A DNA stretch of 64,000 nt, taken from the NCBI GenBank assembly GCA_020851955.1, contig JADZBU010000292.1:1704-65703 (forward strand), read 5' to 3'. The notes beneath the pieces are model-generated. The model made no database searches. It had not been told where the DNA came from and saw only the letters and a program-made list of their open reading frames with translations. How positions within the stretch are numbered: position 1 is the first letter of the stretch; each line of letters begins with the position of its first letter. Below, piece by piece: positions 23,230 to 41,366 of this stretch. The stretch is from Chromatiaceae bacterium. Its GTDB lineage: Bacteria; Pseudomonadota; Gammaproteobacteria; Chromatiales; Chromatiaceae. Both the position numbers and the translations under genes were made by a program.

Positions 23230-23357
23230 GATTGACCTTGAGGTCCGGCCACCGTGGCAGCAGGCCACGCAGGTAGCCGAGCAAAATGTCGATATTGAGG
23301 CCCAGCTCGTGGGCCTCGTCAATGATGAGGGAGTCGTATTGCTACAGCAGGCGATCC
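23230..23357 (-). pseudogene. Orphan fragment of an hrpA-like gene (DEAH-box region)
   Basis: About 128 bp that align with hrpA 21393..21519 at roughly 90 percent identity by eye. It encodes ...[33 protein letters not shown] with no surrounding helicase ORF. Confidence 0.7.
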
Positions 23358-23911
23358 GCTCGATCAGGTGATCTGAAGGTAATATTGTTAAAAAACAATG
23401 GGCATAACCCATAGCTAAAGACGGGATAATTGGCTTTGTTTCGTAATTTGGCCCTTGCGCGGTTTACCTTATCAAAGAATCAGATTGGCATCCCTGGTGA
23501 CCCCAACCTTGAGGGCATCCTCTAGTACCAAAAGGCAGCAAGACCACCGAAGCCACATGCAGATAACGTGCACATGAAAAAAACGCCGTAATCAGGTTGG
23601 GAAGAAGTCAGCATGGTCGGTTTCGACATGATTCAGGATTAAAGTCTGAAGGGCCGTCACTGGGGAAAGGATCGTTAGCCGTACCGCCGCGCCTGCCCCA
23701 TAGCCCCCTCCACGGGACACTGAAGAGACCGCAGTCAATCAGCGCCGCGCTCCCATTATTCCAGCCATAACTCCTAGCAGGAGCCCATACCACAGCGTGG
23801 TGCAGAATCATGGGCATGGCGCTGGTGGTATTCACAGTGCTTCCCCGTCCGATGCCATTCAATATCCGCAGGTCCAATGCTTATTATTACCCGGCCTGCG
23901 CTTCCAACTCA

Positions 23912-25117
23912 TCAGAAAATAGTAACGTTGCTGGAATGACATATGAACCCCCTATCTTCGAACCAACAAACTCCTTCTTGAACAACAGTTAGGGTCAATT
24001 TGTAATTTCCTTTTTCGCTTGGAGCAACAACCCTAACAACTTCCTTGACTGACTTATTAGGGAGGACGACTTGACTTGTCAAATTACTTCGGACCCCATC
24101 ATAAATGAGATAACTTTCATCAATATTTTTCCAGTGGTAGCTAAGTAAGACTGGATGGGTACCGTAGCCATGCCATATCTCATCACCCGCATTACTTAGT
24201 GTCACCGGAACATCAAATACTTCGCCAACCGCAACAGAAGTGATTATCGAATCTGCCTGGACAGTACCGTTAGGATTGATAACCACGGGAGTCGAAAATC
24301 GCTTTTGAGTGGCAGAGATTCCCTGTAAAGACGCTATCGAATCCAGTTTCCCCTGAATTTCCCGATCGAAACCCGCCACCAGATTTGGGAATTTATGGTT
24401 AATAACATGCTGGTACATTACATGATAAGCGCGGTCTGGCAAATGCAAGTCGACAATGTTGACGTTGTCCGTGTCAATTGCATAAAGGTGAGGAAAAACT
24501 GAGCGCATAAAATCAAGAAAATCTGGAATCGTGATACGCTGCAATACATCTAGACAGAAATGATTCATTTCCATAACGACCGTAGGCTGGTGTTTCCGTA
24601 AAAACTCTCTCCCACCTTTGATTACATTCTGTTCAAAACCTTCAACATCTATCTTCAAAAACTTGACAGGAAATTCAGTATCATAAAAATAATTATCAAG
24701 TGTATCGATTTTAATTTCTTCTGTCAGATGCCCGGTCTCAAGCCTGATTTTATCGCTGACATAGCCACCTGAACGGTTATTTTTTGCAAAGGTTATCGTC
24801 AGAGATTCTCGCTCACTGCCAAGACCGAGGTTTACTGCCTCCACATTACCTATACCTGCCCTGTAAAGATTATCAGCAAGAATTTTGTAGGTTGTGGGGC
24901 TTGGCTCAAATGCAAATACTTTCCGAGCCAGGGTCGAAAACAATATCCCTGTCAATCCAATATTTGCACCAATATCAGCCACCACGTCATCAGGTCCGAC
25001 AAGCGTACGAAATAGTTCCACCATATGCGGCTCGAAGTTATCGCCTATCGTATCGAGATAGTTATCATCGGAGGTGATGGAATAAACTTTGTCTCCAATT
25101 TTTACTTCTCTTTTCAT
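23912..25117 (-). CDS. FkbM-family SAM-dependent methyltransferase with an extra C-terminal beta-rich domain
   Basis: 401 aa with VADIGANIGL (SAM motif), FLKIDVEGFE (the FkbM signature) and AT-rich codon usage. It is a paralog of 37021..38280. Confidence 0.8.
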   Translation of the reverse strand: MKREVKIGDKVYSITSDDNYLDTIGDNFEPHMVELFRTLVGPDDVVADIGANIGLTGILFSTLARKVFAFEPSPTTYKILADNLYRAGIGNVEAVNLGLGSERESLTITFAKNNRSGGYVSDKIRLETGHLTEEIKIDTLDNYFYDTEFPVKFLKIDVEGFEQNVIKGGREFLRKHQPTVVMEMNHFCLDVLQRITIPDFLDFMRSVFPHLYAIDTDNVNIVDLHLPDRAYHVMYQHVINHKFPNLVAGFDREIQGKLDSIASLQGISATQKRFSTPVVINPNGTVQADSIITSVAVGEVFDVPVTLSNAGDEIWHGYGTHPVLLSYHWKNIDESYLIYDGVRSNLTSQVVLPNKSVKEVVRVVAPSEKGNYKLTLTVVQEGVCWFEDRGFICHSSNVTIF

Positions 25118-26508: not shown

Positions 26509-26729
26509 GCCGCGACGGCCCGAGGCGCATCAAAACTGTATCAACCTCAGCCTTGGCATGGGCTTGGGCTTGGACAAGATCGCGAGTTGCTGATGACTCT
26601 GGCCATACCCCATAATATTGGATTAATCTAGTCATTGACGATTCATAAAATTCCCCTATCGTCTACGCTAGAAAGGCCAGGATGGCTGTCTATCCAAACC
26701 TCCACGATCCCCGCAGGAGCTTTGCTGGC

Positions 26730-27722
26730 ATGACCATCGCCTTCATCACAGGTATCACCGGCCAGGACGGTTCCTACCTCACGGAGTTGTTACTCGCACA
26801 GGGCTACGAAGTTCATGGCGCCGTGCGTCGCACCAGCTCCCTGGATCGCAGCCGTCTCGCCCATCTTTACGCCGACCCAACTCTTTATAATCATAGGCTT
26901 TTCCTTCATTACGCGGACCTGGATGACCCAACCACCCTGCGCCGGGTGCTGACCAAGGTTGCGCCGCGTGAGGTCTATCACCTCGCCGGCCAGAGCCACG
27001 TCGGGCTCAGCTTCGAAATACCCGAGACGACTTGTGAATTTACCGCCATGGGTACGCTGCGCCTTCTGGAAATTCTCCGCGATCTGCCCGAGCCGCCCCG
27101 TTTTTTCCATGCCACTTCCAGTGAAATCTTCGGCCGCCCCCTAGAAGTTCCCCAAACCGAAACGACCCCCATCGCCCCGGTCAACCCCTACGGCTGTGCC
27201 AAGGCCTTCGCGACCCAGATGGTACGGGTTTACCGCGAGGCCCATGGGCTCTTCGCCGTCAATGGCATTCTCTACAACCACGAATCGCCCCGCCGGGGCG
27301 AAAACTTTGTCACCCGCAAAATATGTCGCGCCGCCGCCGCCATCAAGGCTGGCCACCAGAGCAAACTACCCCTGGGGGACACTTCCGCGCGGCGTGACTG
27401 GGGCCATGCCCGCGATTACGTCCGAGGTATGTGGCTGTCGCTCAGGCATGACACCCCCGACGATTACATCTTCGCCACGGGCCAACTCCACAGCGTACAG
27501 GATGTGCTGGAGAATGCCTTTGCCGCCCTTGACCTGGATTGGCACAAGTACGTCGAGACCGACCCCCACCTCCTGCGTCCTGCCGAGCCCATGCAGTTGG
27601 TAGGGAACGCAGACAAGGCGCGCACCACCCTCGGGTGGTTACCGCAGACCAGTTTCACCGATCTCATCCATGAAATGACCCGAGCCGAGTTCCAGGTTCT
27701 GGCCGATACATCCATTAACTAG
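26730..27722 (+). CDS. GDP-mannose 4,6-dehydratase-family paralog (short form; role may be dehydratase or reductase)
   Basis: [12 protein letters not shown] Rossmann motif, TSSE, YGCAK (YxxxK) and [16 protein letters not shown], all Gmd hallmarks. It is clearly diverged from the adjacent gmd. Confidence 0.75.
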
Positions 27723-27735
27723 TCATCATCATCCC

Positions 27736-28827
27736 ATGTCCCAGCCCAAAATCGCACTTATCACCGGCATTACTGGCCAAGACGGCGCCTACCTGGCGGA
27801 GTTCCTGCTCCGCAAGGGCTACCTCGTTCACGGCATCAAGCGCCGCAGCTCCCTCTTCAACACCGACCGCATCGATCACCTCTATCAGGATCCTCACGAT
27901 CCAGACCGCCGCCTGATCCTTCACCATGGCGACATGACCGATTCCAGCAGCCTGGTGCGCATCCTCCAACACACTCAGCCCGACGAAATCTATAACCTTG
28001 CGGCCCAAAGTCACGTCGCCGTGTCCTTTGAGGAGCCGGAGTACACCGCCAATTCCGACGCCTTGGGCGCACTGCGCCTGCTGGAGGCCATTCGCATCCT
28101 GGGGCTGGAAAAAAAGACCCGCTTCTATCAAGCCTCCACCTCGGAACTCTACGGCCTGGTTCAGCAAGTGCCCCAGACCGAGACCACCCCCTTCTACCCG
28201 CGCAGCCCCTACGCCGTCGCCAAGCTCTACGCCTACTGGATCACGGTCAACTACCGCGAGGCCTACGGCATTTACGCCTGCAATGGCATCCTCTTCAACC
28301 ATGAGAGTCCCCTGCGCGGCGAGACCTTTGTCACCCGTAAGATTACCCGCGCCCTTGCGCGCATCAAACTGGGTCTGCAGGAATGCCTCTATCTCGGTAA
28401 CCTCGACGCCAAACGCGACTGGGGCCATGCCCGCGATTATGTGGAAATGCAGTGGCTTATGCTCCAGCAGGAAAAACCCGAGGATTATGTGATCGCGAGC
28501 GGCGAGCAACACAGCGTGCGCACCTTTGTCGATCTTGCCGCCGCCGAACTGGGCATCCACCTTACCTGGAGCGGCCAGGGCATCGATGAAGAGGGCCATG
28601 ACGCCCAGGGTATCTGCCGGGTAGCCGTGGATCCACGTTACTTCCGCCCCACCGAGGTCGAAAGCCTGCTGGGGGACGCCAGTAAGGCCAGGCTTCAACT
28701 CGGCTGGCAACCCAAGACCAGCTTCCCTGACCTGGTGCGGGAAATGGTACGCGAGGATCTCAAGGGCGCCGAGCGAGATGAACTCATCCAACAGCATGGT
28801 TATAAAGCCTTTGACCGTCATGAGTGA
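27736..28827 (+). CDS. gmd: GDP-mannose 4,6-dehydratase
   Basis: 363 aa, [19 protein letters not shown]...STSELYG...YAVAKLY...[18 protein letters not shown], with the canonical Gmd sequence throughout. Confidence 0.9.
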
Positions 28828-28874: not shown

Positions 28875-29702
28875 ATGAACGAAAACCAGGTGTCACGGCT
28901 GCCAGGCCTGATAATGATCCGCGCCCTTTGGGCTTATCGTGGGTTCGTCATGAGTAGTGTCGCCCGCGAATTCAGTGGGCGTTACCGCGAGTCCCTGCTG
29001 GGCACTTTCTGGTCGGTAGCCAATCCCCTGACCATGATTGTGATCTACACCGTGATCTTCGGCCAAATCATGCGGCCTTCCCTCCCAGGCCATGAGCAGA
29101 CCCCCTTTGCTTTCAGCATCTATCTCTGTGCGGGGGTCATCACTTGGGGTCTGTTTGGAGAAATGCTCGCACGCCTGAACAGCGTCTTCCTGGAAAACGG
29201 CAACCTGATCAAAAAATCCAATTTCCCGCGCATCTGCCTCCCAGCAATCGTCACTCTGTCCGCACTGGTCAATTTCGGCATCATCTTCGCTCTTTACTTG
29301 GTTTTTCTTGCCATCATTGGTCACTGGCCGGGGTGGGTGCTACTCGCCCTCGTCCCATTACTCGCACTGCAACTCCTGTTCACCCTGGGCTTGGGCATTT
29401 TTTTAGGCACCCTCAATGTCTTTTTCCGGGATGTCGGACAATTCACCGGCGTGGTATTGCAATTCTGGTTTTGGCTCACCCCTATTGTTTACACCATCTC
29501 GATTCTCCCCGAAGGCGCGCGTGACGCCTTTGCAATGAATCCGTTGCAACCGCTTATGGCTGCTTATCAAAATCTGTTTCTTGATCACCAGTTACCCGAC
29601 TTTTCATCGCTCTTACCCCTCGCGCTGCTGACCCTCATTTTTTTGGGGCTCGGCGCAACCTTCTTTCTCAGTCACGTCGGCGAGATGGTGGACGAGCTAT
29701 GA
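28875..29702 (+). CDS. wzm: O-antigen/polysaccharide ABC transporter permease (ABC-2 type)
   Basis: 275 aa with six hydrophobic segments and ABC-2 family composition. Translationally coupled (ATGA) to the ATPase gene. Confidence 0.85.
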   Translation: MNENQVSRLPGLIMIRALWAYRGFVMSSVAREFSGRYRESLLGTFWSVANPLTMIVIYTVIFGQIMRPSLPGHEQTPFAFSIYLCAGVITWGLFGEMLARLNSVFLENGNLIKKSNFPRICLPAIVTLSALVNFGIIFALYLVFLAIIGHWPGWVLLALVPLLALQLLFTLGLGIFLGTLNVFFRDVGQFTGVVLQFWFWLTPIVYTISILPEGARDAFAMNPLQPLMAAYQNLFLDHQLPDFSSLLPLALLTLIFLGLGATFFLSHVGEMVDEL

Positions 29703-30916
29703 CGCACGCCTTAGTAGTGTCCAGCCTGGGCAAGGCTTACAAGCGTTATCCTGGCAAGTGGTCACGCGCCGCCGAGTGGATTATTGGTGAGTCACGACAC
29801 GAGAAAACCTGGGTTCTGCGCGATATCAACTTCAGCATCAGCCCCGGAGAAGCCGTGGGGATCGTCGGCATCAACGGTGCTGGTAAGAGCACCCTGCTCA
29901 AGATCATCACTGGCACCACCCAACCCACCACGGGTAGTGTAAGCCACCAGGGCCGGGTCGCCGCGATGCTGGAACTCGGCATGGGTTTCCACCCCGATTT
30001 CACGGGGCGGCAAAACGCCTACATTGCGGGACAATTGTTAGGTTTAAGTACCAATGAAATTGCCAGCCTCATGCCATCCATCGAAGACTTCGCGGAGATC
30101 GGGGATTACCTCGATCGCCCCGTGCGTCTCTATTCCAGCGGCATGCAAATGCGGCTGGCCTTCAGCGTTGCCACCGCCCTCCGCCCGGACATCCTCATTG
30201 TTGATGAGGCGCTATCGGTGGGCGATGCCTATTTCCAGCACAAAAGCTTTAATCGCATTCGTGAATTCCGCGCACAGGGCACGACACTACTCATCGTTTC
30301 GCATGATAAAAGCGCCATCCAAACCCTGTGTGATCGCGCCATCCTGCTTGAGCGCGGTTTTGTCATCAAGGATGGCAATCCCCAGGAAGTCATGGATTTC
30401 TACAACGCCATTATCGCGGAGAAGGAAAACGCCACGGTAGAGGTCAAACGCCTGGATAATGGTAGCGCCCAAACCCAATCGGGTACCGGCGAGGCACGGG
30501 TTGAATCCATCGTCATGCTGGACGAGCAAAATAATGCAGTCGAGTTAATTAATGTTGGGCAGCGGGTGCGACTTAAAGTCGATATCCGCGTATATACCGA
30601 TCTACCTCAGTTGTCGTTTGGCTACATGATCAAGGATCGCCTTGGGCAACCCGTCTTCGGCACCAACACTTACCACCTTGGTGTCGAACTGAACCACCTC
30701 AAAAAAAACGAAACGTTGACATTAACCTTTTCCTTCCCCGCCAACATTGGATTAGGATCATATTCGGTTTCAACCGCTCTCCATGCGCTGGATACTCACT
30801 TGATGGGAAATTATGAGTGGCGTGACCTAGCGTTTATATTTAATGTAGTCAATATCGACCGTGCTCCATTTGTCGGCGTGAGTTGGATTCCGCCTGAAGC
30901 CGAATGCCAGCGATGA
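29699..30916 (+). CDS. wzt: O-antigen ABC transporter ATP-binding protein with a C-terminal glycan-binding-type extension
   Basis: Walker A GINGAGKST, signature YSSGMQMRL and Walker B ILIVDEAL, plus about 150 extra C-terminal residues, as in Wzt proteins that recognise capped O-chains. Confidence 0.9.
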   Translation: MTHALVVSSLGKAYKRYPGKWSRAAEWIIGESRHEKTWVLRDINFSISPGEAVGIVGINGAGKSTLLKIITGTTQPTTGSVSHQGRVAAMLELGMGFHPDFTGRQNAYIAGQLLGLSTNEIASLMPSIEDFAEIGDYLDRPVRLYSSGMQMRLAFSVATALRPDILIVDEALSVGDAYFQHKSFNRIREFRAQGTTLLIVSHDKSAIQTLCDRAILLERGFVIKDGNPQEVMDFYNAIIAEKENATVEVKRLDNGSAQTQSGTGEARVESIVMLDEQNNAVELINVGQRVRLKVDIRVYTDLPQLSFGYMIKDRLGQPVFGTNTYHLGVELNHLKKNETLTLTFSFPANIGLGSYSVSTALHALDTHLMGNYEWRDLAFIFNVVNIDRAPFVGVSWIPPEAECQR

Positions 30917-32898
30917 CCTCCGAATCCTCTGGATCTAAACCTGAATCAAAGAGTGATAAAACCGCGCTGATGAGCAACAGTACCGCGCCCTCGGGGCCGA
31001 AGCCAACGCGTAGAAACAGGAAGCCGGTGTCCGCGCCACCCCAGACCAAACCGACATACGGTTTTTACCGCGCCTTCGAGGAGCGGTACCGGGGCCCACG
31101 TGACTTAATCAAACACCGCCTCGGCGTTTACCTGCCCTTCATCGAGCCACTCAGACAGCTTTACGCTCAATGCACCGCCACAGATCTGGGTTGCGGTCGG
31201 GGTGAATGGCTGGAACTGCTTCAGAATAATGGGTTTATAGCCTACGGTGTTGATCTTGACGACGGTATGCTCGCGGCTTGTAAAGAGCTTGGCCTGAGCG
31301 TCACCCGACAAGAGGCTATTGGGTATCTTCAATCCCTTGATGATAATTCTCAATGTATCGTGTCCGGCTTTCACTTCGCCGAACACATCTTGTTTGCTCA
31401 CCTCCAGTTGCTGGTTGCCGAGGCGTTGCGCGTGCTGAAGCCCGGGGGATTACTGATCCTGGAAACGCCAAACCCAGAAAACGTGGTTGTGGGCACTACT
31501 GACTTTTATCTCGATCCTACGCATCAACGACCCATTCCCCCGCTACTCCTATCATTTTTGCCAGAATTTCAAGGTTTCGCACGCGTTAAAATCCTACGTC
31601 TCCAGGAATCATCCGATCTGGCTAGACAGGAAGATGTGACATTAAAGGATGTTTTTTTCGGTACAAGTCCAGACTATGCCGTTGTTGCGCAAAAAAATGC
31701 CGAGTCAGGTATTCTGCAAAATTTCAGTACCACTTTTGATAAGCAATATGGCATTGAACTCGGGGAGCTTGCTAATCGATATGATGCGAGGATAGAACGC
31801 AGGCTTATTGCTTTCGATCAACGTGTTGGCAATGTTGAAAGTTCCGCGGGTGGAATGACTGAGGCAATATCGCGGATTTCAACCCTGCAAGACCGGCTTA
31901 TCGAAGCGAATTCGCAAAGCGAACGTAACCAATACCGCGCCACGCAATTAATAGAACAACTACACCACGCCGAGGCCCAGGCCCACGACCAGGAACAACG
32001 CGCCCTCGCCGCCGAGGCCCTGGCCCACGACCAGGAACAACGCGCCCTCGCCGCCGAGGCCCAGGCCCACGACCAGGAACAGCGTGCCCTCGCCGCCGAG
32101 GCCCTGGCCCACGACCAGGAACAGCGCGCCCTCGCCGCCGAGGCCCTGGCCCACGACCAGGAACAGCGCGCCCTCGCCGCCGAGGCCCTGGCCCACGACC
32201 AGGAACAGCGCGCCCTCGCCGCCGAGGCCCAGGCCCACGACCAGGAACAGCGCGCCCTCGCCGCCGAGGCCCTGGCCCACGACCAGGAACAGCGCGCTAC
32301 CCTCGCCGAAAGCGCCGCCGCAGAGCAGGCATACCAGGCCATCCTCGCGGCGTGCCGCGCCGACGAGCAGCAGCAGCGGGCGGAGCACGCCGAAACGCAA
32401 AGCTTGAACCATCAGTCCCGGGTCGATGAACTGGGGGGTAGTTCACACCACTGGTGGCTACAATGTCACCAACTGGAAGCGGAACGGAACGCCCTTCGCC
32501 AAAGCTGGTCCTGGCGCATCACGGCCCCGGTGCGGTGGGTAGGTGGCATTTTGATCCGTTTCGTCAACGCAATCCGGCGCGGGGCAAACACGATTCTGCG
32601 AACGGCCATCGACCGATTCCAACGTCCCCTGGCAAAACTGATGCGCGCCGTCCTCGCGAAACCGGCTTTTGCCGATCGCCTAAATCGACTGCTCCTGCGC
32701 TTTCCCCATCTTTACCAACAACTACTGCAAGTTGCCAGTCTCAACGGCGTCCTGATGGGCGCCTCGCCTATGCCCGCACCCCGCCCACTTGACACCGCCA
32801 CTCCCGAACTAGACCAGCTAACCCCCCACGCCCGTCGTATTTATCAAGAACTCAAGGCAGAAATCGAGAAATCGAGAAAGAAGCAAGCTTCCGACTAG
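30913..32898 (+). CDS. WbdD-like O-chain-terminating methyltransferase with a long repeat-containing coiled coil
   Basis: N-terminal FYRAFEERYRG box and class I SAM motif DLGCGRGEW, followed by about 300 aa of helical Q/E/A/R-rich sequence. The start is taken at the ATG overlapping the wzt stop; an earlier ATG at 30904 is possible. Confidence 0.75.
   Translation: MTSESSGSKPESKSDKTALMSNSTAPSGPKPTRRNRKPVSAPPQTKPTYGFYRAFEERYRGPRDLIKHRLGVYLPFIEPLRQLYAQCTATDLGCGRGEWLELLQNNGFIAYGVDLDDGMLAACKELGLSVTRQEAIGYLQSLDDNSQCIVSGFHFAEHILFAHLQLLVAEALRVLKPGGLLILETPNPENVVVGTTDFYLDPTHQRPIPPLLLSFLPEFQGFARVKILRLQESSDLARQEDVTLKDVFFGTSPDYAVVAQKNAESGILQNFSTTFDKQYGIELGELANRYDARIERRLIAFDQRVGNVESSAGGMTEAISRISTLQDRLIEANSQSERNQYRATQLIEQLHHAEAQAHDQEQRALAAEALAHDQEQRALAAEAQAHDQEQRALAAEALAHDQEQRALAAEALAHDQEQRALAAEALAHDQEQRALAAEAQAHDQEQRALAAEALAHDQEQRATLAESAAAEQAYQAILAACRADEQQQRAEHAETQSLNHQSRVDELGGSSHHWWLQCHQLEAERNALRQSWSWRITAPVRWVGGILIRFVNAIRRGANTILRTAIDRFQRPLAKLMRAVLAKPAFADRLNRLLLRFPHLYQQLLQVASLNGVLMGASPMPAPRPLDTATPELDQLTPHARRIYQELKAEIEKSRKKQASD
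31969..32307 (+). repeat. Tandem repeat, 42-bp unit, about 8 copies, in frame
   Basis: Unit gccgaggccc[a/t]ggcccacgaccaggaaca[a/g]cg[c/t]gccctc encodes AEA(Q/L)AHDQEQRALA. Copies differ at only 1-3 positions and the last copy is degenerate. Confidence 0.95.
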
Positions 32899-33249
32899 AG
32901 GTTGGTAACAGCCACCCGTCACTTCATCATTCACACGCTCAAGCAACGCAGGGTGGCATCTATGCCATCTCCTGCTGTACGTCTTCATGGCCATATATTT
33001 TGCTAATGTCGTAAATATGGCGATATTTTTTTTGTGGTTTACAGGAGTGCTCTTGTAGAAGATAATTCACATTCCTTGCAATCTTGTCAACAAACCTGAG
33101 TTAAATAAAATAATGATAAAAAGATATCGCACCGCATTCACATAGATTTTTGATAAATTATTCATTTATCTTTACCGCCGCCGGAAGCAAAGGGATGTTA
33201 TATTTCTTTTTGCTCAACCGTTTTTTTCCAGTATCTATTAATAACAATA

Positions 33250-36200
33250 ATGCGCATCGTTATTGACATGCAGGGCGCCCAAACCGAGAGCCGCTTTCGC
33301 GGAATCGGCCGTTACACCATGTCCTTCGCACAGGCTGTTGTTCGTAACAAGGGTGAACATGAGATCTTCCTCGCCTTAAGCGGCCTGTTCCCCGACACCA
33401 TCGAGTCCATACGCGCAGCCTTCGACGACCTGTTACCGCAGGAGAACATCCGTGTTTGGTATGCCCCGGGTCCAGTGAAGGAATGCGAACCGGGTAACGA
33501 CTGGCGCCGCAAGGTAGCGGAACTCATCCGTGAAGCCTTCCTCGCCAGTCTTGCGCCGGATGTGATCCACCTTAGCAGCCTATTCGAAGGCTATGTCGAC
33601 GATGCAGTGACCAGCATAGGGTGTTTCGACGCCAACACTCAGGTTAGTGTGACCCTTCACGACCTCATCCCTCTGTTGTACCCGGACCACTACTTGAAGC
33701 CCAATCCACGCTATGCACATTATTACCAGCATAAAATCGAACATCTGAAAAAATCAGCGCTATATCTTGCGGTTTCGGAATTTAGCCGGAAGGAATCGGT
33801 GGAGCATCTTGACATATCCGCCAGTGTGATCGTAAATACCTCTGAAGGGACCGAGCCCCACTTCAAACCCTGCCAGATCGCTGTTGACGTTGCCCAGCAA
33901 CTGCGCCACAAGTTTGACATCACCCGTCCCTTTGTTCTCTACACCGGCGGTGCGGACCAACGCAAGAATTTGCGGCGTCTCATTCAAGCCTACGCCACCT
34001 TACCCGCCCCGTTGCGAGCAGGTCATCAATTGCTGCTGGCCGGCAAAATGCCCCAGGGTGATATCGCCCACCTTCAAGAGCAAGCAAAATCCGTCGGCCT
34101 CCAACCGGATGAATTGCTTTTCACGGGCTATGTGACGGACGATGAACTCGTCAAGCTATACAATCTGTGTGAGCTATTCGTGTTCCCCTCCTGGCACGAA
34201 GGCTTCGGTCTACCAGCACTTGAGGCCATGGCCTGTGGTGCACCGGTCATCGGCGCCAATACTTCCAGCCTGCCGGAAGTCATCGCACTGGATGAAGCCA
34301 TGTTCGACCCCCTCGACGTTGCCGCCATCGCCGCCAAAATGGCCCATGGGCTGGAAAACGACGCCTTCCGCGCCAAACTGCGCGAGCACGGCTGGCAGCA
34401 GGCGCAGCGGTTTTCCTGGGACGAATCGGCTAAAAGAGCGATTACAGCGTGGGAGGATTGGCTGAAATCACAACCGCAACAAAAGGCAAGCAGCCAGCCA
34501 ACCGAGCGTAAACTAAGACTGGCCTTCATTTCCCCCTTGCCGCCAGAACGCACCGGCATCGCCGATTACAGCGCCGAACTGTTGCCGGCGCTGGCGGCGC
34601 ATTACGACATCGAAGTCGTGGTTGCGCAGGATCGGGTCGATGAGCCTTGGGTCAATCGCCATGGCACGGTGCGGGACGTGTCATGGTTCCTTGCAAACAC
34701 CCACGCTATCGACAGGGTACTTTATCAGGTAGGCAATTCCCCTTTCCATCAGCATATGTTGCCTCTGCTTGTGGAAATTCCGGGCGTGGTGGTGCTTCAT
34801 GATTTCTATATGAGTGGGCTGATGTCTTGGCTGGAGTTGTATGCTGGCGCAGAACATGCTTGGACAGAAGCGCTTTATGCCGCTCACGGCTATGGCGCTG
34901 TGCGCGAACGCTATCGTGATCCCGAAGCGGCAAAACGCAAATATCCCGTCAATTTGCAGGTTCTCCAGCACGCCCAAGGCTTGATTGTGCATTCCAAATA
35001 TTCACGAAGCCTAGTACACCAATGGTGTGGAGAAGATTTTACAGACGCTTGGGAAATGATTCTCCATCTGCGATCACCAGCAAGCACATTCGACAAGGCT
35101 GTCGCGCGAAAACAGCTCGGCTTGGATGAGAATGATTTTGTCGTTTGCAGCTTTGGATTTCTGGATTCGACCAAGCTCAACCATCGTTTGCTTAACGCTT
35201 GGCTAGATAGTGCTCTGGCCAGCGATAAACGATGCAAATTGGTATTCGTAGGCGAGAACCACGGCGGCGACTACGGCTCAACCATTTTGCAAACGATACG
35301 CGCCAGCGGCCTTGGTAATCGCATCCACATCACCGGCTTCGCATCGCCTGAAACGTTCCGGCTGTACCTAATGGCAGCCGATATGGCGGTGCAACTCCGC
35401 GCCAATTCTAGGGGCGAGACATCGGGCACTGTATTGGACGGCATGAACCATGCGCTGCCGCTTATCGTCAATGCCAATGGCTCGATAGCGGAATTGAACC
35501 CCGATGCCGTCTGGATGTTGCCCAACGAATTTGCCGATGGCACACTCGTCGAAGCCTTGGAAACTATGTGGCGTGAGCCTGAAAGACGTCGGGCCGTGGG
35601 TGAACGAGCACGCGAAATCATCCTGAACCAGCACGCACCTGCCGCGTGCGCCCAGCGTTATACGGAAGCAATCGAGCATTTTCAGCGTCGCGCCGAGACT
35701 GCGAAGCCAGCCTTAATACAAGCTATCGCGGCACAGAATCAGTTTGTGCCCAGCGACGCCGATCTTCGCCAACTCGCCAAGACCCTCTCCGCTACCCTGC
35801 CATTACTCAGCCCAGCCAAGCGCCTGTTTTTGGATGTGACAGCCACCTGCCGCAACGACCTCAAGACCGGCATTGAGCGTGTCGCGCGTGCTCTGCTGCT
35901 GGCGCTGCTGGAAGCCCCGCCCACCGATTACCGAATCGAACCAGTGTATCTCAGCGAGGCCGGCAGGCAATGGCACTACCGCTACGCTCGCCGCTACACG
36001 CTAGAGCTGCTGGGCTGCCCGCCGGATGCTCTCGTCGACGAGATTGTCGAGCCCGAATGTGGCGATATTTTGCTGGGGCTGGATCTATCAGGCGACATGC
36101 TGGTTCAGGCAGAGCGTGCGGGGGTTTTTGCGGATTACCGTAACCACGGCGTCATGGTGTATTCCGTGGTTTTCGACCTGCTGCCTGTGCGCATCCCCGA

Positions 36201-37011
36201 AGTGTTCCCGCCGGGTGCGGACCTGATACACGCGACGTGGTTGCAGACGGTTGCAAATTTCGATGGCGCTATCTGCATCTCAAAAGCCGTTGCCGATGAT
36301 CTTGTTGCCTGGCAGGAGGAGGCCGGCTTCGATTGGAAAGGTCGGCGTCCTTTCCGGGTCAGCTGGTTTCACCTTGGCGCTGATGTCGCCAATTCCGCAC
36401 CCAGCTTGGGTCTGCCCGACAATGCCGAATGGATGTTAGGCCAGCTTCGATCTCGCCCCAGCTTCTTGATGGTCGGCACCATCGAGCCCCGCAAGGGTTA
36501 CCTGCAAACCATAGAAGCTTTCACCCAACTCTGGCACGATGATGTTGATGTGAACCTGGTCATCGTCGGCAAAGAAGGTTGGAAAGATCTGCCGGATGAC
36601 ATGCGCCGGGACATCCCCCAAACTATTGAGTTACTGAAAATCCACCCCGAACTGGACAAACGCCTGTTCTGGCTAGAAGGCATCAGCGACGAATACCTGG
36701 AGAAAGTCTACGCTGCAAGCACCTGCCTGATCGCCGCTTCCTACGGCGAAGGTTTCGGCTTGCCTCTCATCGAGGCCTCCCAGCACAAGCTGCCGATCAT
36801 CGCCCGGGATATTCCAGTGTTTCGGGAGGTAGCGGGTGATCACGCGTATTATTTCGATTCCCAGTTACCCGCAGCCTTGGCCCAGGCGATCAATAAGTGG
36901 CTGGACCTGTTTGGTGCCGGGCAACGCCCAACATCAGCCGCCATGCCCTGGTTGACATGGAAAGAAAGTGCGCAGCTATTGGCAAGAAAAATAACGAAGT
37001 ATCAAAGTTAG
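33250..37011 (+). CDS. Three-module GT4 glycosyltransferase (WbdA/WbpX-like O-chain polymerase candidate)
   Basis: 1253 aa with three successive GT-B/GT4 C-terminal signatures: EGFGLPALEAMACGAPVI, SRGETSGTVLDGMNHALPLI and GEGFGLPLIEASQHKLPII. Confidence 0.85.
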   Translation: MRIVIDMQGAQTESRFRGIGRYTMSFAQAVVRNKGEHEIFLALSGLFPDTIESIRAAFDDLLPQENIRVWYAPGPVKECEPGNDWRRKVAELIREAFLASLAPDVIHLSSLFEGYVDDAVTSIGCFDANTQVSVTLHDLIPLLYPDHYLKPNPRYAHYYQHKIEHLKKSALYLAVSEFSRKESVEHLDISASVIVNTSEGTEPHFKPCQIAVDVAQQLRHKFDITRPFVLYTGGADQRKNLRRLIQAYATLPAPLRAGHQLLLAGKMPQGDIAHLQEQAKSVGLQPDELLFTGYVTDDELVKLYNLCELFVFPSWHEGFGLPALEAMACGAPVIGANTSSLPEVIALDEAMFDPLDVAAIAAKMAHGLENDAFRAKLREHGWQQAQRFSWDESAKRAITAWEDWLKSQPQQKASSQPTERKLRLAFISPLPPERTGIADYSAELLPALAAHYDIEVVVAQDRVDEPWVNRHGTVRDVSWFLANTHAIDRVLYQVGNSPFHQHMLPLLVEIPGVVVLHDFYMSGLMSWLELYAGAEHAWTEALYAAHGYGAVRERYRDPEAAKRKYPVNLQVLQHAQGLIVHSKYSRSLVHQWCGEDFTDAWEMILHLRSPASTFDKAVARKQLGLDENDFVVCSFGFLDSTKLNHRLLNAWLDSALASDKRCKLVFVGENHGGDYGSTILQTIRASGLGNRIHITGFASPETFRLYLMAADMAVQLRANSRGETSGTVLDGMNHALPLIVNANGSIAELNPDAVWMLPNEFADGTLVEALETMWREPERRRAVGERAREIILNQHAPAACAQRYTEAIEHFQRRAETAKPALIQAIAAQNQFVPSDADLRQLAKTLSATLPLLSPAKRLFLDVTATCRNDLKTGIERVARALLLALLEAPPTDYRIEPVYLSEAGRQWHYRYARRYTLELLGCPPDALVDEIVEPECGDILLGLDLSGDMLVQAERAGVFADYRNHGVMVYSVVFDLLPVRIPEVFPPGADLIHATWLQTVANFDGAICISKAVADDLVAWQEEAGFDWKGRRPFRVSWFHLGADVANSAPSLGLPDNAEWMLGQLRSRPSFLMVGTIEPRKGYLQTIEAFTQLWHDDVDVNLVIVGKEGWKDLPDDMRRDIPQTIELLKIHPELDKRLFWLEGISDEYLEKVYAASTCLIAASYGEGFGLPLIEASQHKLPIIARDIPVFREVAGDHAYYFDSQLPAALAQAINKWLDLFGAGQRPTSAAMPWLTWKESAQLLARKITKYQS

Positions 37012-37020
37012 GAATTAGGC

Positions 37021-38280
37021 ATGCAAAAAAATATTAAGATCGGCGACAAAAGCTTCGAAGTCATATCTGATGACAATTATCTCGAAGCGATGGGCAGTGA
37101 ATTCGAGCCGCACATGGTGGATTTATTCCGTGCGCTTGTTAGCCCAAATGATGTGGTTGCGGATGTAGGCGCCAACATTGGCTTGACGGCCCTGCTTTTT
37201 TCTGGGTTAGCAAAAAAAACCTACGCATTCGAGCCAAGCCCAAGCACCTACAAGATATTAAGCAATAACCTTAAAATCGCAGAAATTTTAAATGTTGAGA
37301 CGGTCAACCTTGGCTTCGGCGCAAAACCAGAGACGCTGACGATTACGTTTGCGAGCAACAACCGTTCAGGCGGTTTTATCAGTGAAAAAATCCGTCCAGA
37401 AAATGGACATATTACCGAAGCAATCCAAATAGAGACATTGGACGGTTTTTTTGCGGATAGGGAACTCAAACCCAACTTTTTAAAAATTGATGTTGAGGGT
37501 TTTGAGCAAAAGGTGATCAAGGGGGGGGGGAAATTACTTGCTTATACCAAGCCCACGGTGGTGATGGAGATGAATCACTTCTGCCTGGACGTACTACAGC
37601 GGATCACCATTCCGGACTTTTTGGACTTTATGCGTTCAGCTTTCCCCTACCTGTATGCAATAGACACCGATAATGCATCGGTAGTTGATCTACATATTCC
37701 TGACCAAGCTTATTTCGTAATGCACGAGCATGTTGTGAAACACCGTTTCCCTAATCTGGTAGGTGGTTTTTCGCCCGAAATAAAATTAAAACTTGAAGCT
37801 ATGGCTTTGCTATACGCAGCCCCCTCGCCTTTGATAACGCATGCGCAGACCGCAGTTCGGGCAATGATGGGCAAGTTAGTGGAAGGGCAAGCATTCAAAA
37901 CCCCCGCCGCAGAGAAGATCGGGGGTACATTGCAGGCCGATTCCCTGCCAGTAAAAATGTCACCGGGAAGCGCAACAGAAATACCCATCACCCTTAAGAA
38001 CGAAGGCAAGAACACTTGGTACGGCTATGGCAGTCATCCTGTCTTGCTTTCCTATCACTGGCTGAAGGCAGACGGCAGCACTTACCAACACGATGGCTTG
38101 CGGTCGCCGCTCGCATGTGAAACCCTGGAGCCTGGTAAAGCGACTAATGAACTAGTTATCGTTATCGCACCCAAAACTAAGGGGCTCTACCAGCTTGTTT
38201 TGACGCTCGTACAAGAGGGCTTTTGCTGGTTCGAGGAACAAGGCTTCCAATGCGTAACCGCGCACGTGATTGTCGAGTAA
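37021..38280 (+). CDS. FkbM-family methyltransferase with a C-terminal beta-rich domain, paralog of 23912..25117
   Basis: 419 aa with VADVGANIGL and FLKIDVEGFE. It shares the identical block PTVVMEMNHFCLDVLQRITIPDFLDFMRS with the paralog and contains a G10 tract. Confidence 0.8.
   Translation: MQKNIKIGDKSFEVISDDNYLEAMGSEFEPHMVDLFRALVSPNDVVADVGANIGLTALLFSGLAKKTYAFEPSPSTYKILSNNLKIAEILNVETVNLGFGAKPETLTITFASNNRSGGFISEKIRPENGHITEAIQIETLDGFFADRELKPNFLKIDVEGFEQKVIKGGGKLLAYTKPTVVMEMNHFCLDVLQRITIPDFLDFMRSAFPYLYAIDTDNASVVDLHIPDQAYFVMHEHVVKHRFPNLVGGFSPEIKLKLEAMALLYAAPSPLITHAQTAVRAMMGKLVEGQAFKTPAAEKIGGTLQADSLPVKMSPGSATEIPITLKNEGKNTWYGYGSHPVLLSYHWLKADGSTYQHDGLRSPLACETLEPGKATNELVIVIAPKTKGLYQLVLTLVQEGFCWFEEQGFQCVTAHVIVE
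37521..37530 (+). repeat. G10 homopolymer inside the methyltransferase coding sequence
   Basis: aag ggg ggg ggg aaa encodes KGGGK. The paralog has ggtggg at the same position with no tract. Confidence 0.9.
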
Positions 38281-38647: not shown

Positions 38648-39572
38648 GTGAAGGCAGTCTTTACAAATGGCATCTCAATGGTAGACCAGGGGTATCGATA
38701 TGCGCACCGCTTTACCCAGGGTTTCGTTGGCTGGCCAGAAGAGTGGCTGCAAGACGAACCTATCGACTACCCGCCTGGCGATGATTTCCTCGGCCTCAAT
38801 ATGCAGCCGCAAGTGGTGTCGGCACGGTGGGAGTTTTATCTGGCGTTACGCAGGCAGGGCGTGTATGTGCATCTCGAAGGCTGTGGCCGATGAACTCGCC
38901 GACTGGGCCAAGGAAAATGGCCCAGCACGTCAACGGCCCTTCAAAATCCATTTGTTACATCTTGGCGCCGATGGCGACAACCTGACGCCAACCAGAGCAC
39001 TCCCGCCAGATGCGGACATCGTGTTTGATTGCTTACGCGCCCGCCCCACCTTTCTGATGGTCGGCATGCTCGAACCCTGCAAAGGCCATGGGCAAGTGCT
39101 CGATGCCTTTGAGCAACTCTGGAGGACCAGCAGTGACCTCAACCTCGTCATCATTGGCAAACAAGGCTGGATGGTTGAGGCCCTCCTCGACCGTCTCCGC
39201 GCGCACCCCGAACTGAATCAACGCCTGCTCTGGCTTGAAGGCATCAGCGACGAATACCTGGAAAAAGTCTACACTGCCAGCACCTGCCTGATCGCCGGCT
39301 CCTACGGCGAAGGCTTCGGCTTGCCTCTCATTGTTGCCGCCCAGCATAAGCTGCCGATCATTGCACGGGATATTCGCGCGTTCCGCGAAGTGGCCGGTGA
39401 GTATGCATATTATTTTGATGGCCCAACTCCTGACGTGTTGGTTGATGCAATTAATGCATGGCTTGTGTTGCATAGAAGTGGCCGGCATCCAATGTCAGAT
39501 AATATACCGTGGTTAACGTGGAAAGAGAGACCTTTGCGACTTGCGCAGGTTTTACAAGACGATCGTTTGTAA
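38648..39572 (+). pseudogene. Decayed copy of the third GT4 module of the polymerase gene
   Basis: Homology to residues about 900-1253 of the 33250..37011 product is split over two frames (38648..38893 and 38700..39572). About 35 codons are missing at the junction and there is no N-terminal half. Confidence 0.65.
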
Positions 39573-39588
39573 ACAAAGAGCCAATTAA

Positions 39589-40794
39589 ATGCAAAAAAAC
39601 AATATCATACTCTTTGCCATCTTGCTCATATCACCTGTTTGGTTTTTTTTAATATGGTCAGTAATGGATTTCTCAGATTTTCGGTGGGATGCTGCATGGT
39701 ATCGGCAAATTAGTGCGGTAGGATATTCATTTAATGGCAATATATTGGAGCAAAACAATGTCGCCTTTTTACCAGGCTATCCCGTTTTGGTGTATGTTTT
39801 GTCAATATTTTTACCAATTGATCTCGCGTACATGCAGTTTATTGCTTCTGTGTTGTTATATTTTATAGGCGCATTCTGCCTGGCAAATTATGTTGGCAAT
39901 AGAATTGGCCTGCTCGAGGGATATGTCTTTATATTTATTCTATCGTTCACGCCTTATGCAATTTATTTTTTTAATGGCTACTCTGAAGCCGCTTATTTTG
40001 CGGTTATTGGTTTGTTTTTCTGTTTATCTGGTCGTGGGCATTATAGGATGGCTGCGCTAGTGGTGTCTTATGGCCTAATCACTAGGCCGCATGCACTTAT
40101 ACTTGTACCAATTTTGTATTATTTCGTGCTGTCGGGTGAGACTGGTTCGTTGGGTGATGAGCGAAGATTAAAATTAGTTGCCAGTATCAGATCGATTATA
40201 AATGTCACTCCTTTTGTTTGTGTTTTTCCCGCCGTGCTAACAGTCTACTATTATTTATTTTTTGAGGATACACTGTTATACAAAAATGCGATCACGGCAT
40301 GGGAAGTTCATGCGACTGGACTTTCTCAGAGTGAAACTTTGTGGCTTTCAATAGACTCGTTTCGCCATCTGACCACCGGGACTATTGAGGTCGCTGGAGT
40401 TATGCTAAAATATTTCGAACCCACGAAGTTCTCTGGTCTGGTTTTTTTATTAAATATTTTGGCAATAATTTTTATGGCTAGGTATTTGATAAAAAGAAAT
40501 TTATTATCAATATTTCTCTATCTTGTGTTTGCTGCGTTGTTTGGATTCATAACTGCGTCAATTGAAAATTTCGGGCGCCACAATTTGTTTCTCATGGCGC
40601 TACCGTTGTTCATGTCGGTTATTCTTGCGATGGGGGGAAGGCAAATTTTTCTGGATGACGGTAAGGTGGTCGGTGGGGCTGAAAAGGCTGGGAAAATAAT
40701 TATTGGTGCATTTGCTCTGTTATTTTTCGTGGTTCTATTTTACCATTTTACCATTTATGCTGCCTTGCAATTGAAAGATCAATGGGTATCATGA
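39589..40794 (+). CDS. Polytopic membrane protein, GT-C-like (PIG-V/mannosyltransferase-like) candidate
   Basis: 401 aa with about 10 hydrophobic segments. The first-loop motif DAAWYRQISAVGY...VAFLPGYPVLV resembles bacterial GT-C/PIG-V-like glycosyltransferases. Very AT-rich. Confidence 0.5.
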   Translation: MQKNNIILFAILLISPVWFFLIWSVMDFSDFRWDAAWYRQISAVGYSFNGNILEQNNVAFLPGYPVLVYVLSIFLPIDLAYMQFIASVLLYFIGAFCLANYVGNRIGLLEGYVFIFILSFTPYAIYFFNGYSEAAYFAVIGLFFCLSGRGHYRMAALVVSYGLITRPHALILVPILYYFVLSGETGSLGDERRLKLVASIRSIINVTPFVCVFPAVLTVYYYLFFEDTLLYKNAITAWEVHATGLSQSETLWLSIDSFRHLTTGTIEVAGVMLKYFEPTKFSGLVFLLNILAIIFMARYLIKRNLLSIFLYLVFAALFGFITASIENFGRHNLFLMALPLFMSVILAMGGRQIFLDDGKVVGGAEKAGKIIIGAFALLFFVVLFYHFTIYAALQLKDQWVS

Positions 40795-41366
40795 GCCAAC
40801 TTACATATATTATTTCATTGCTAACAGTTGCAGCATGGCTGACGTTTGTTTATGTCGGCGCAAAATCAAAAAATGATTATCTTTCTGTAGCTCTCTCTCC
40901 GCTGGCTATTGGTGTTGTGGCTGACTGGAAGAATGAGGAGAACTATCTTTACTTTAAAGGGTTTTCAGGTCCTGAACCCACGCATAGATGGTCTAATATA
41001 TCATATTTAAATATGTGTTACTTGCTACCCACTGATTCCATGGATTCTTGGGTTTTCTCTGTTAAAATGGATATACGGGTTGTTTCCGACTTGGTTGGCG
41101 AGAATATTATGGTGCGAGCTAATCGGGGGGAATGGATTTCAAATGTTTGTAAGTCGCAGGGCTGCGAATTAAATATTTCAGTTGCACCGCCCAGTAATTC
41201 GCAAATTATATGTTTGGAACTCCAATTACCTAAAACAGTCCGTGTAGAGGGTGACCCAAGAGCGCTAGGTATTCAGTTCTTTAGTTTAGAATACGAGATT
41301 CAAAAACCACCAGCGAAAGCTGGTGGGTTGAAATTACGGACTGAAAGTCCGGATAGGGGTCGATAG
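40791..41366 (+). CDS. Hypothetical protein with an N-terminal TM anchor
   Basis: AT-rich ORF coupled by ATGA to the preceding gene. No recognisable motif. Its last ~20 codons run through two GAAA-loop hairpins. Confidence 0.4.
   Translation: MSQLTYIISLLTVAAWLTFVYVGAKSKNDYLSVALSPLAIGVVADWKNEENYLYFKGFSGPEPTHRWSNISYLNMCYLLPTDSMDSWVFSVKMDIRVVSDLVGENIMVRANRGEWISNVCKSQGCELNISVAPPSNSQIICLELQLPKTVRVEGDPRALGIQFFSLEYEIQKPPAKAGGLKLRTESPDRGR

Follow-up and report, generated by a model that had tools for sequence, protein, structure and literature searches.

The 64,000-nucleotide stretch of Chromatiaceae DNA analysed here (contig JADZBU010000292.1 of assembly GCA_020851955.1; hereafter the window) carries a gene for a putative O-polysaccharide chain-terminating methyltransferase which houses an array of eight 42-bp tandem repeats. 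The best-supported interpretation of the array is that of a ruler: we consider it likely, at roughly two chances in three, that the repeats form part of the helical stalk of the enzyme and that this stalk is a length-tunable ruler for the O-polysaccharide. An enzyme carried on a partly repeat-built stalk probably caps sugar chains of the cell surface. The idea was first put forward from the letters of this DNA alone (the sequence-only reading). The family-wide evidence, consisting of heptad-quantised spacers, unit-wise allelic series and a module junction within the stalk, extends beyond that original proposal.

Tandem Repeats Finder reported one array at 31968-32297 (period 42, 7.9 copies, 97% matches, 0 indels, score 618) and no second large tandem array within the window. 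In the frame that starts at 31969, units 1-7 each translate as AEA(Q/L)AHDQEQRALA; of their 42 bases, 0-2 depart from the consensus, and units 4-6 are mutually identical at the DNA level. Unit 8 possesses one codon more than the others (QRA-T-LA), so that the array ends at 32307. The eight near-identical in-frame repeats that the sequence-only reading had placed at 31969-32307 are therefore present, as seven near-perfect units and an eighth with an additional codon. The variable sites among the units comprise one non-synonymous position (CAG/CTG, giving Q or L) and two synonymous ones (CAA/CAG and CGC/CGT), and both flanks hold degenerate units of 70-88% identity that remain in register. As near-identical in-frame tandem DNA repeats with a unit divisible by three, the array has the make-up of a variable-number-tandem-repeat type coding locus. 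Minus-strand open reading frames (ORFs) over the array (31818-32342 and 31960-32412) were set aside as expected by-products of a GC-rich repeat, since the cross-taxon conservation is that of the plus-strand frame. The encoded segment is rich in alanine and has a net charge of -16, with 24 acidic (D+E) versus 8 basic (K+R) residues per 112; if helical, its approximately 113 residues would span about 17 nm and a single unit about 2.1 nm (arithmetic, at 0.148 nm per residue).

The terminator protein consists of three parts, i.e. a class I S-adenosylmethionine (SAM) methyltransferase head, a helix of approximately 250 residues and, at the C-terminus, a cationic amphipathic domain (C-domain). The gene and its segments, with predicted local distance difference test (pLDDT) scores where an AlphaFold2 model was used, are located as follows:

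30904..32898, plus strand: putative O-polysaccharide chain-terminating methyltransferase gene, 664 aa, housing the 42-bp array
31054..31758, plus strand: class I SAM methyltransferase head, about aa 51-285 (Pfam Methyltransf_11/25/23; AlphaFold2 pLDDT 85-98)
31759..31968, plus strand: non-repetitive start of the stalk, aa 286-355 (AlphaFold2 helix; holds the conserved LQDRL anchor, with which the N-domain model ends)
31969..32307, plus strand: 42-bp tandem array, 8 units of two heptads each, aa 356-468 (AlphaFold2 continuous helix, pLDDT 70-80)
32308..32454, plus strand: degenerate repeat units and end of the stalk, aa 469-517 (repeat comparison, heptad register, AlphaFold2)
32455..32895, plus strand: C-terminal domain with SWSWRITAP motif, aa 518-664 (proposed membrane anchor and polymerase docking site)

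In the NCBI annotation the protein (P0001) has 661 amino acids and starts three codons after the 30904 start, at an ATG at 30913 which overlaps the stop codon of the preceding wzt gene as ATGA. Some relatives bear the JGI label 'O-antigen chain-terminating methyltransferase'. The Methyltransf_11/25/23 match covers aa 92-191 and is the sole Pfam domain of the protein; Pfam revealed no kinase domain, the stalk and the C-domain gave no Pfam or NCBIfam matches, and no specific NCBIfam family covers the whole protein. An AlphaFold2 monomer model (34-sequence alignment, mean pLDDT 73) has a confident methyltransferase domain at residues 50-280, followed by predicted helices at 283-351 and 356-530 (661-aa numbering) and four more up to the C-terminus. 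As one continuous helix, the stalk of about 250 residues would measure about 37 nm at the same rise per residue. The earlier assignment of an N-terminal class I SAM methyltransferase followed by a long helical region is thus borne out by Pfam and by structure prediction.

Comparison of the stalk across the family showed a strong preference for whole heptads. The spacer was taken as the distance from the end of the N-domain to the start of the C-domain, as located by hidden Markov models (HMMs), in 119 members of a family that gave 3,489 matches in the initial homologue search. HMM anchors were used instead of regular-expression anchors, which were too loose and left 52 of 120 proteins unanchored. 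The C-domain model is of the query type and misses most of the distant genome loci, which lie outside the statistic. Spacer lengths divisible by 7 occur in 92 of the 119 proteins and account for 24 of the 45 distinct values (binomial p = 9e-10), and this excess persists after clustering of the N-domains at 90, 80 or 70% identity. The same is seen among spacers without detectable repeat, of which 64 out of 87 are divisible by 7. Spacers range from 0 to 329 residues, that of the query being 182 residues or 26 heptads, and the lengths that are off register belong mainly to the +4 class. A four-residue insertion in a coiled coil is known as a stutter. For WbdD-type methyltransferase-kinase proteins, examined with regular-expression anchors, the corresponding count gave no clean pattern, with classes 5, 1 and 2 dominating.

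Counted from the end of the N-domain over 64 distinct spacers, position a is 52% alanine and 33% hydrophobic (85% together) and position d 34% alanine and 34% hydrophobic (68%), with position e being 50% acidic and position g 50% basic. This a/d/e/g pattern is coherent and in phase from the N-domain to the C-domain. Each unit of the array was proposed to correspond to two heptads, which agrees with family spacers in multiples of 7 and a single register throughout; with two heptads in 42 near-identical bases, gain or loss of a unit would therefore spare both the reading frame and the helical register. A stalk consisting of a single alpha-helix of the ER/K type was also considered and is ruled out by the composition of the array and by the a/d seam of the family. 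Stalk repeats of a different kind occur in Pseudomonas sp. DWP3-1-2 and Microbulbifer variabilis (loci L034 and L058), where the periods are 11 and 22 residues (hendecads) and not multiples of seven, which suggests that the geometry of the supercoil differs in some lineages.

Many homologues harbor 7- or 14-residue repeats at the same site, with differing unit sequences. Orthologues from two other metagenome-assembled genomes (MAGs), L001 and L002, possess independent 42-bp arrays made from different units, of 8.2 copies at 100% identity in L001 and 7.1 copies at 97% identity in L002, the latter on a 1.18-Mb contig. Within clusters of 90% identity, four independent allelic series were found. 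In each of them the alleles share 97-99.8% identity apart from the gap, and their lengths vary in whole units of 7 or 14 residues:

Unit ARAAEQQ: 459 / 466 / 473 / 480 aa
Unit AESRATE: 503 / 510 / 517 aa
Unit AAEALALEHEQRAx: 496 / 510 / 524 / 538 aa
14-aa units of AAEARAAQQEQRAG type: 602 / 644 / 658 aa

The 538-aa allele is that of the isolate Acidovorax sp. 94 (GCA_003634645.1, 5.37-Mb contig) and has 4 DNA units, as compared to 2 and 1 in two metagenome contigs. Loci L093 and L094, which share 98.6% identity along 7.36 kb, both have a perfect 21-bp array, with 4 copies in L093 and 3 in L094; each array fits inside one sequencing read. More than one spacer length is present in 13 of the 20 multi-member clusters (90% N-domain identity), and clusters devoid of arrays, which serve as an internal control, show zero spacer indels. 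The comparison of copy number among homologues that was suggested along with the sequence-only reading thus yields near-identical alleles that differ by exact units, including one from an isolate genome. For the locus in the window itself there is a sole close relative, L083, which has another copy number and also an exchanged C-terminal module.

The number of eight copies could be an artefact, in the sense of a real array that was collapsed or expanded during metagenome assembly. The array comes from a MAG contig of 68 kb, and the identical units 4-6 leave a stretch of about 146 bp, the longest in the array, devoid of a distinguishing base, so that a unit count from short reads may be off. 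We regard such an error as highly improbable in view of the distinguishing bases in units 1-3, 7 and 8, the orthologous arrays of 7-8 copies in independent assemblies, including the 1.18-Mb contig, and the 4 copies in the genome of the Acidovorax isolate.

The length variation may also be explained by neutral slippage in a tolerant linker, the length of which would be irrelevant, with multiples of seven arising only from slipping units of 7n residues. The variation is confined to stalks with arrays, and perfect or near-perfect arrays slip readily; moreover, the broad range of spacers in a single family would mean that the enzyme tolerates almost any length. What makes this explanation unlikely is the preference for multiples of seven in spacers that are free of repeats, together with the single a/d/e/g register between the N- and C-domain, which points to a structural constraint over the whole segment. 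In addition, a change of coiled-coil length did alter chain length in the sole system tested, WbdD, according to the accounts of that work cited below.

The mode of action proposed for the ruler follows from WbdD, the terminator of E. coli O9a. Engineered insertions in its coiled coil raise the modal chain length and truncations lower it (Hagelueken 2015, according to the summaries in PMC5082667 and PMC11231755). The C-terminal region of WbdD recruits the polymerase WbdA (PMC3482155). The coiled coil is described as the characteristic marker of the terminators of this pathway; its function as a ruler was shown for E. coli O9a and for K. pneumoniae O12, where the modal length changes upon engineered insertion or truncation (PMC11231755, PMC5082667). 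In the query, the cationic amphipathic C-domain would be located at the cytoplasmic membrane, on its inner side, and would dock the polymerase, a multi-module protein of glycosyltransferase family 4 (GT4). The growing lipid-linked chain would be capped only once its non-reducing end reaches the head, and the capped end would be recognised by the carbohydrate-binding module of Wzt, leading to export of the chain. Slipped-strand mispairing or unequal recombination would add or remove about 2.1 nm of stalk per unit and, by analogy with the engineered WbdD variants, shift the modal chain length; the repeats would double as a homologous joint for exchange of the C-domain together with the polymerase module. 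For the query we infer the oligomerisation as a coiled coil, the docking to membrane and polymerase, the terminal methylation and the effect on chain length alike.

Several observations weigh against the ruler interpretation. The a and d residues of the query array are A, Q, A and A, which make a weak coiled-coil core; together with the net charge of the array, this makes it uncertain that the segment forms a homomeric coiled coil. The pLDDT values of the AlphaFold2 monomer model are only 70-80 across the array. Heptad quantisation could in part result from slippage of units and not from selection for register. Not every array changes fast, since the P0002 allele (4.8 copies, 91% unit identity) encodes one and the same protein on 9 contigs, which represent at least 6 samples. 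Chain length in E. coli O9a is also set by the ratio of terminator to polymerase (King 2014, as summarised in PMC11231755). Because the head of the query is not a WbdD homologue, neither the acceptor nor the specificity for terminal or internal residues is given by homology, and two FkbM methyltransferases encoded in the same cluster could be the actual capping enzymes.

The repeats also mark the site at which the window and its closest relative part. L083 (JGI 3300037458) shows 95.4% DNA identity to positions 29388-32020, a stretch which runs from the end of wzm through the entire wzt gene and the methyltransferase domain as far as the first repeat unit. The homology stops inside the array: the L083 stalk has one unit, an insert and then 4.3 units that are consistently unlike those of the window (R for H), and both the C-domain and the downstream glycosyltransferase (GT) differ from those of the window. 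The claim that the array should recombine readily is well in line with this breakpoint. As a separate observation, about 70 residues of the distal stalk, the HHWQLAE motif among them, are present as a nested duplication at positions 2021-3469 of L083, with 1 unit in the first copy and 4 in the second. The identities in three pairs of loci are:

Window versus L083: Wzt 96.7%, N-domain 96.3%, C-domain 31%, GT 25%
Window versus L084: Wzt 94.5%, N-domain 82.5%, C-domain 48%, GT 66%
L001 versus L002: N-domain 75%, C-domain 86.5%, GT 83%

Since C-domain identity tracks GT identity in these pairs, the C-domain appears to travel with the polymerase and not with the head, and judged from the alignments the repeat stalk is the joint between a head module and a C-domain/polymerase module. 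It may be argued that this is the main role of the repeats, i.e. that they connect a wzm-wzt-head module to varied C-domain-polymerase modules and thereby diversify the chemistry of the O-antigen and not its length. The breakpoint within the array with joint replacement of C-domain and GT, the covariation of these two in the other pairs, the occurrence of one C-domain behind several kinds of catalytic head, and the recombination-driven histories of the transport, elongation and termination (TET) operons of P. syringae, as described in part of PMC7820976, are all consistent with it. As the principal explanation we nevertheless find it improbable, because it leaves unexplained the allelic series that differ solely in copy number and are otherwise 98-99.8% identical; a joint is, moreover, compatible with a ruler and not an alternative to it.

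The C-terminal domain itself was found to be a widely shared module. Its 147 residues carry a net charge of +13 and form amphipathic helices (hydrophobic moment 0.6-0.76) with no transmembrane segment. The SWSWRITAP domain has no Pfam or NCBIfam model. A search of the full library with this domain gave 292 representative clusters, in which it is nearly always C-terminal. Proteins that carry it behind varied heads or fused to GT4 include P0197, P0205, P0230, P0270, P0278 and P0304. Among these, P0197 is a true WbdD-type methyltransferase-kinase (2e-130 to WbdD in the PDB over residues 3-504). The C-terminal part of about 200 residues of P0197 shares 38% identity with that of the query (BLASTP, E 1e-34), whereas the heads share 26% over 89 aa (E 7e-4) in the SAM motif region only. 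The domain also occurs behind FkbM methyltransferases and in a protein composed of a sulfotransferase, Wzt_C and a methyltransferase, and several proteins have it fused directly in front of GT4 modules, with P0205, P0270, P0278 and P0304 being methyltransferase-stalk-C-domain-GT4 fusions. On the basis of homology and physico-chemical properties, we propose that the C-domain is a region for membrane association and polymerase recruitment.

The description of the enzyme as WbdD-like in the sequence-only reading stands for its architecture, its operon and its C-terminal domain (1e-34 to P0197), but not for the methyltransferase head, which belongs to a different class I subfamily. The head did not match WbdD at E<=1 in a phmmer search of the PDB, the best hit being 3dli (4e-33), and WbdD was outside the top 50 folds found for the head by Foldseek, in which 3dli was followed by 7pd7 (crocagin methyltransferase CgnL). 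To judge from these comparisons the query is WbdD-like in architecture and not a WbdD orthologue throughout, as it has the base of the stalk in common with WbdD-type terminators and a different catalytic head. Similar to WbdD of E. coli O9a/O8 and K. pneumoniae O3/O5, it combines a catalytic head, an extended helical stalk and a membrane-proximal C-terminal region, and it is accompanied by wzm, by wzt with a carbohydrate-binding module and by a multi-module GT4 polymerase. The homology of the C-terminal region of about 200 residues is to the WbdD-type P0197, the C-terminus of E. coli WbdD lying outside the comparison. Unlike WbdD, the query has a head without kinase domain and a stalk that largely consists of near-identical DNA repeats with copy numbers that vary in relatives, a feature for which no report was found in the case of WbdD.

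In K. pneumoniae, the terminators WbbB of serotype O12, ORF6 of O7 and ORF7 of O4 likewise have a coiled coil between the terminator head and the polymerase modules (PMC11231755). In this group the coiled coil is sometimes fused to the polymerase GTs, whereas the polymerase of the query is encoded by a separate gene. Their heads also differ from that of the query, being a Kdo transferase in O12 and O4 and a methyltransferase-kinase in O7. CgnL, the nearest fold to the query head after 3dli, is also the closest structural relative of the methyltransferase domain of O7 ORF6 (PMC11231755). The P. aeruginosa methyltransferases PA5457 and PA5459 are without the membrane- and glycosyltransferase-interacting domains of E. 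coli WbdD and do not regulate length in the manner of WbdD (PMC3560663).

The TET operon of P. syringae is involved in the synthesis of a D-rhamnose-containing common polysaccharide antigen and includes a methyltransferase termed wbdD-like; according to the passages of PMC7820976 that cover it, the size range of the lipopolysaccharide (LPS) varies within TET clades, which was attributed to the terminator. Its genes are arranged as wzm-wzt-O-methyltransferase-GT4 next to gmd/rmd (Jayaraman et al. 2020, in the same passages), an order that the window shares, although rmd is only probable there. Query homologues are present in many Pseudomonas genomes, with the Psa protein being outside the comparison. 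In contrast to the query stalk, neither stalk length nor repeats are described in these passages. For terminator stalks in general, no description of natural tandem repeats or copy-number variation was found in the full-text literature, which mostly excludes subscription journals; the sequence-only reading, too, was aware of no earlier account of a repeat-encoded, potentially hypervariable O-antigen ruler.

Size-variable coiled-coil or ruler proteins that contain repeats are known from other systems, examples being the streptococcal M protein and YscP, the needle ruler of the injectisome. The p197 protein of T. brucei is a further size-variable, repeat-containing protein of the ruler type, as outlined in part of PMC9546609. 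In common with the query, these proteins have in-frame tandem repeats in an extended segment, where recombination between repeats alters protein length. They are, however, surface or secreted structures or rulers for protein assembly, whereas the query stalk belongs to a cytoplasmic enzyme and would act on the length of a polysaccharide.

The neighbouring genes fit the proposed function. The terminator gene was predicted to be coupled to wzm-wzt, and it is indeed directly preceded by wzm and by a wzt gene with a Wzt_C domain and followed by a gene with three GT4 modules. The pathway is probably that of an O-polysaccharide exported by an ATP-binding cassette (ABC) transporter, with a polymer of the D-rhamnan type. 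The operon comprises, in addition to the terminator gene:

26682..27722, plus strand: paralogue of GDP-mannose 4,6-dehydratase, rmd-like candidate (Pfam GDP_Man_Dehyd 1e-120)
27736..28827, plus strand: gmd, GDP-mannose 4,6-dehydratase (TIGR01472, 595.6 bits versus a cutoff of 415)
28875..29702, plus strand: wzm, ABC-2 permease of the O-polysaccharide exporter (Pfam ABC2_membrane 1e-23)
29699..30916, plus strand: wzt, ATPase with C-terminal carbohydrate-binding module (Pfam ABC_tran and Wzt_C, the latter 2e-36 at aa 258-397)
32899..33249, no strand: AT-rich intergenic gap that separates the terminator gene from the polymerase gene (350 bp, 44% GC)
33250..37011, plus strand: three-module GT4 glycosyltransferase of 1253 aa, candidate polymerase (WbdA-like; Pfam Glycos_transf_1 in three stretches)
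37021..38280, plus strand: FkbM-family methyltransferase, possibly for internal methylation

The gmd paralogue scores 400 bits with TIGR01472, just under the 415-bit cutoff, and is probably a GDP-6-deoxy-hexulose reductase (rmd-like) that would provide a 6-deoxyhexose precursor. Among 82 related loci, wzt immediately precedes the terminator gene in 63, and 50 have a GT4 match at most 1.5 kb downstream of that gene. The gap at 32899-33249 has a GC content that is low as compared to 55-65% around it and contains 4 sigma-70-like sites where 1.2 are expected. Since the terminator and polymerase genes abut or overlap in relatives, it could represent a promoter inside the operon, or else a scar left by the exchange of a module. 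A stand-alone GT4 gene follows the FkbM methyltransferase gene at 37021..38280.

Further features of the cluster were noted. FkbM-family paralogues at 23912-25117 (minus strand) and 37021-38280 (plus strand) flank the operon, and either is a possible alternative capping or internally methylating enzyme. Islands of low GC content (38-45%) occur in the polysaccharide cluster at 39400-41200 and 23800-25000, and the ORFs 39589-40794 and 40782-41366 gave no Pfam or NCBIfam match. A direct repeat of 260 nt with 80% identity (36643-36902 and 39204-39463) connects the last module of the three-module GT4 gene to the stand-alone GT4 gene; another of 125 nt with 92% identity (21395-21519 and 23233-23357) is unexplained. 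Elsewhere, family members with a wzm-wzt context were seen in the archaeal-labelled MAGs L035 and L055 (Methanotrichaceae/Methanothrix) and in the Firmicutes isolates L021 (Ferroacidibacillus) and L039 (Sulfoacidibacillus), which could be due to bin contamination or horizontal transfer.

The length of O-antigen chains affects resistance to serum, phage and tailocins as well as the permeability of the outer membrane. For O-antigens that depend on an ABC transporter, the coiled coil of the terminator is the accepted length-setting device, as shown by the engineering of one E. coli protein. Nature appears to run the same length experiment, with whole-heptad changes of the stalk between near-identical strains, often by way of perfect DNA repeats. 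This provides a simple, testable predictor of modal chain length that can be read from the sequence, a candidate explanation for the unexplained variation of LPS size within clades of P. syringae, and a ready natural allelic series of 1, 2, 3 and 4 units. The analysis also identified a conserved C-terminal module that is common to terminators with unrelated catalytic heads and moves with the polymerase. A broader proposal, which we put forward tentatively and regard as possible though doubtful, is that the terminator stalk of the ABC pathway is a naturally hypermutable ruler in which slippage of heptad repeats would create standing variation of modal length within populations of many Proteobacteria, with the repeats also serving as a joint for swapping polymerase modules. 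If so, chain length would be a contingency trait encoded in a cytoplasmic enzyme, and phage, tailocins, complement or grazers could select on the variation in modal length.

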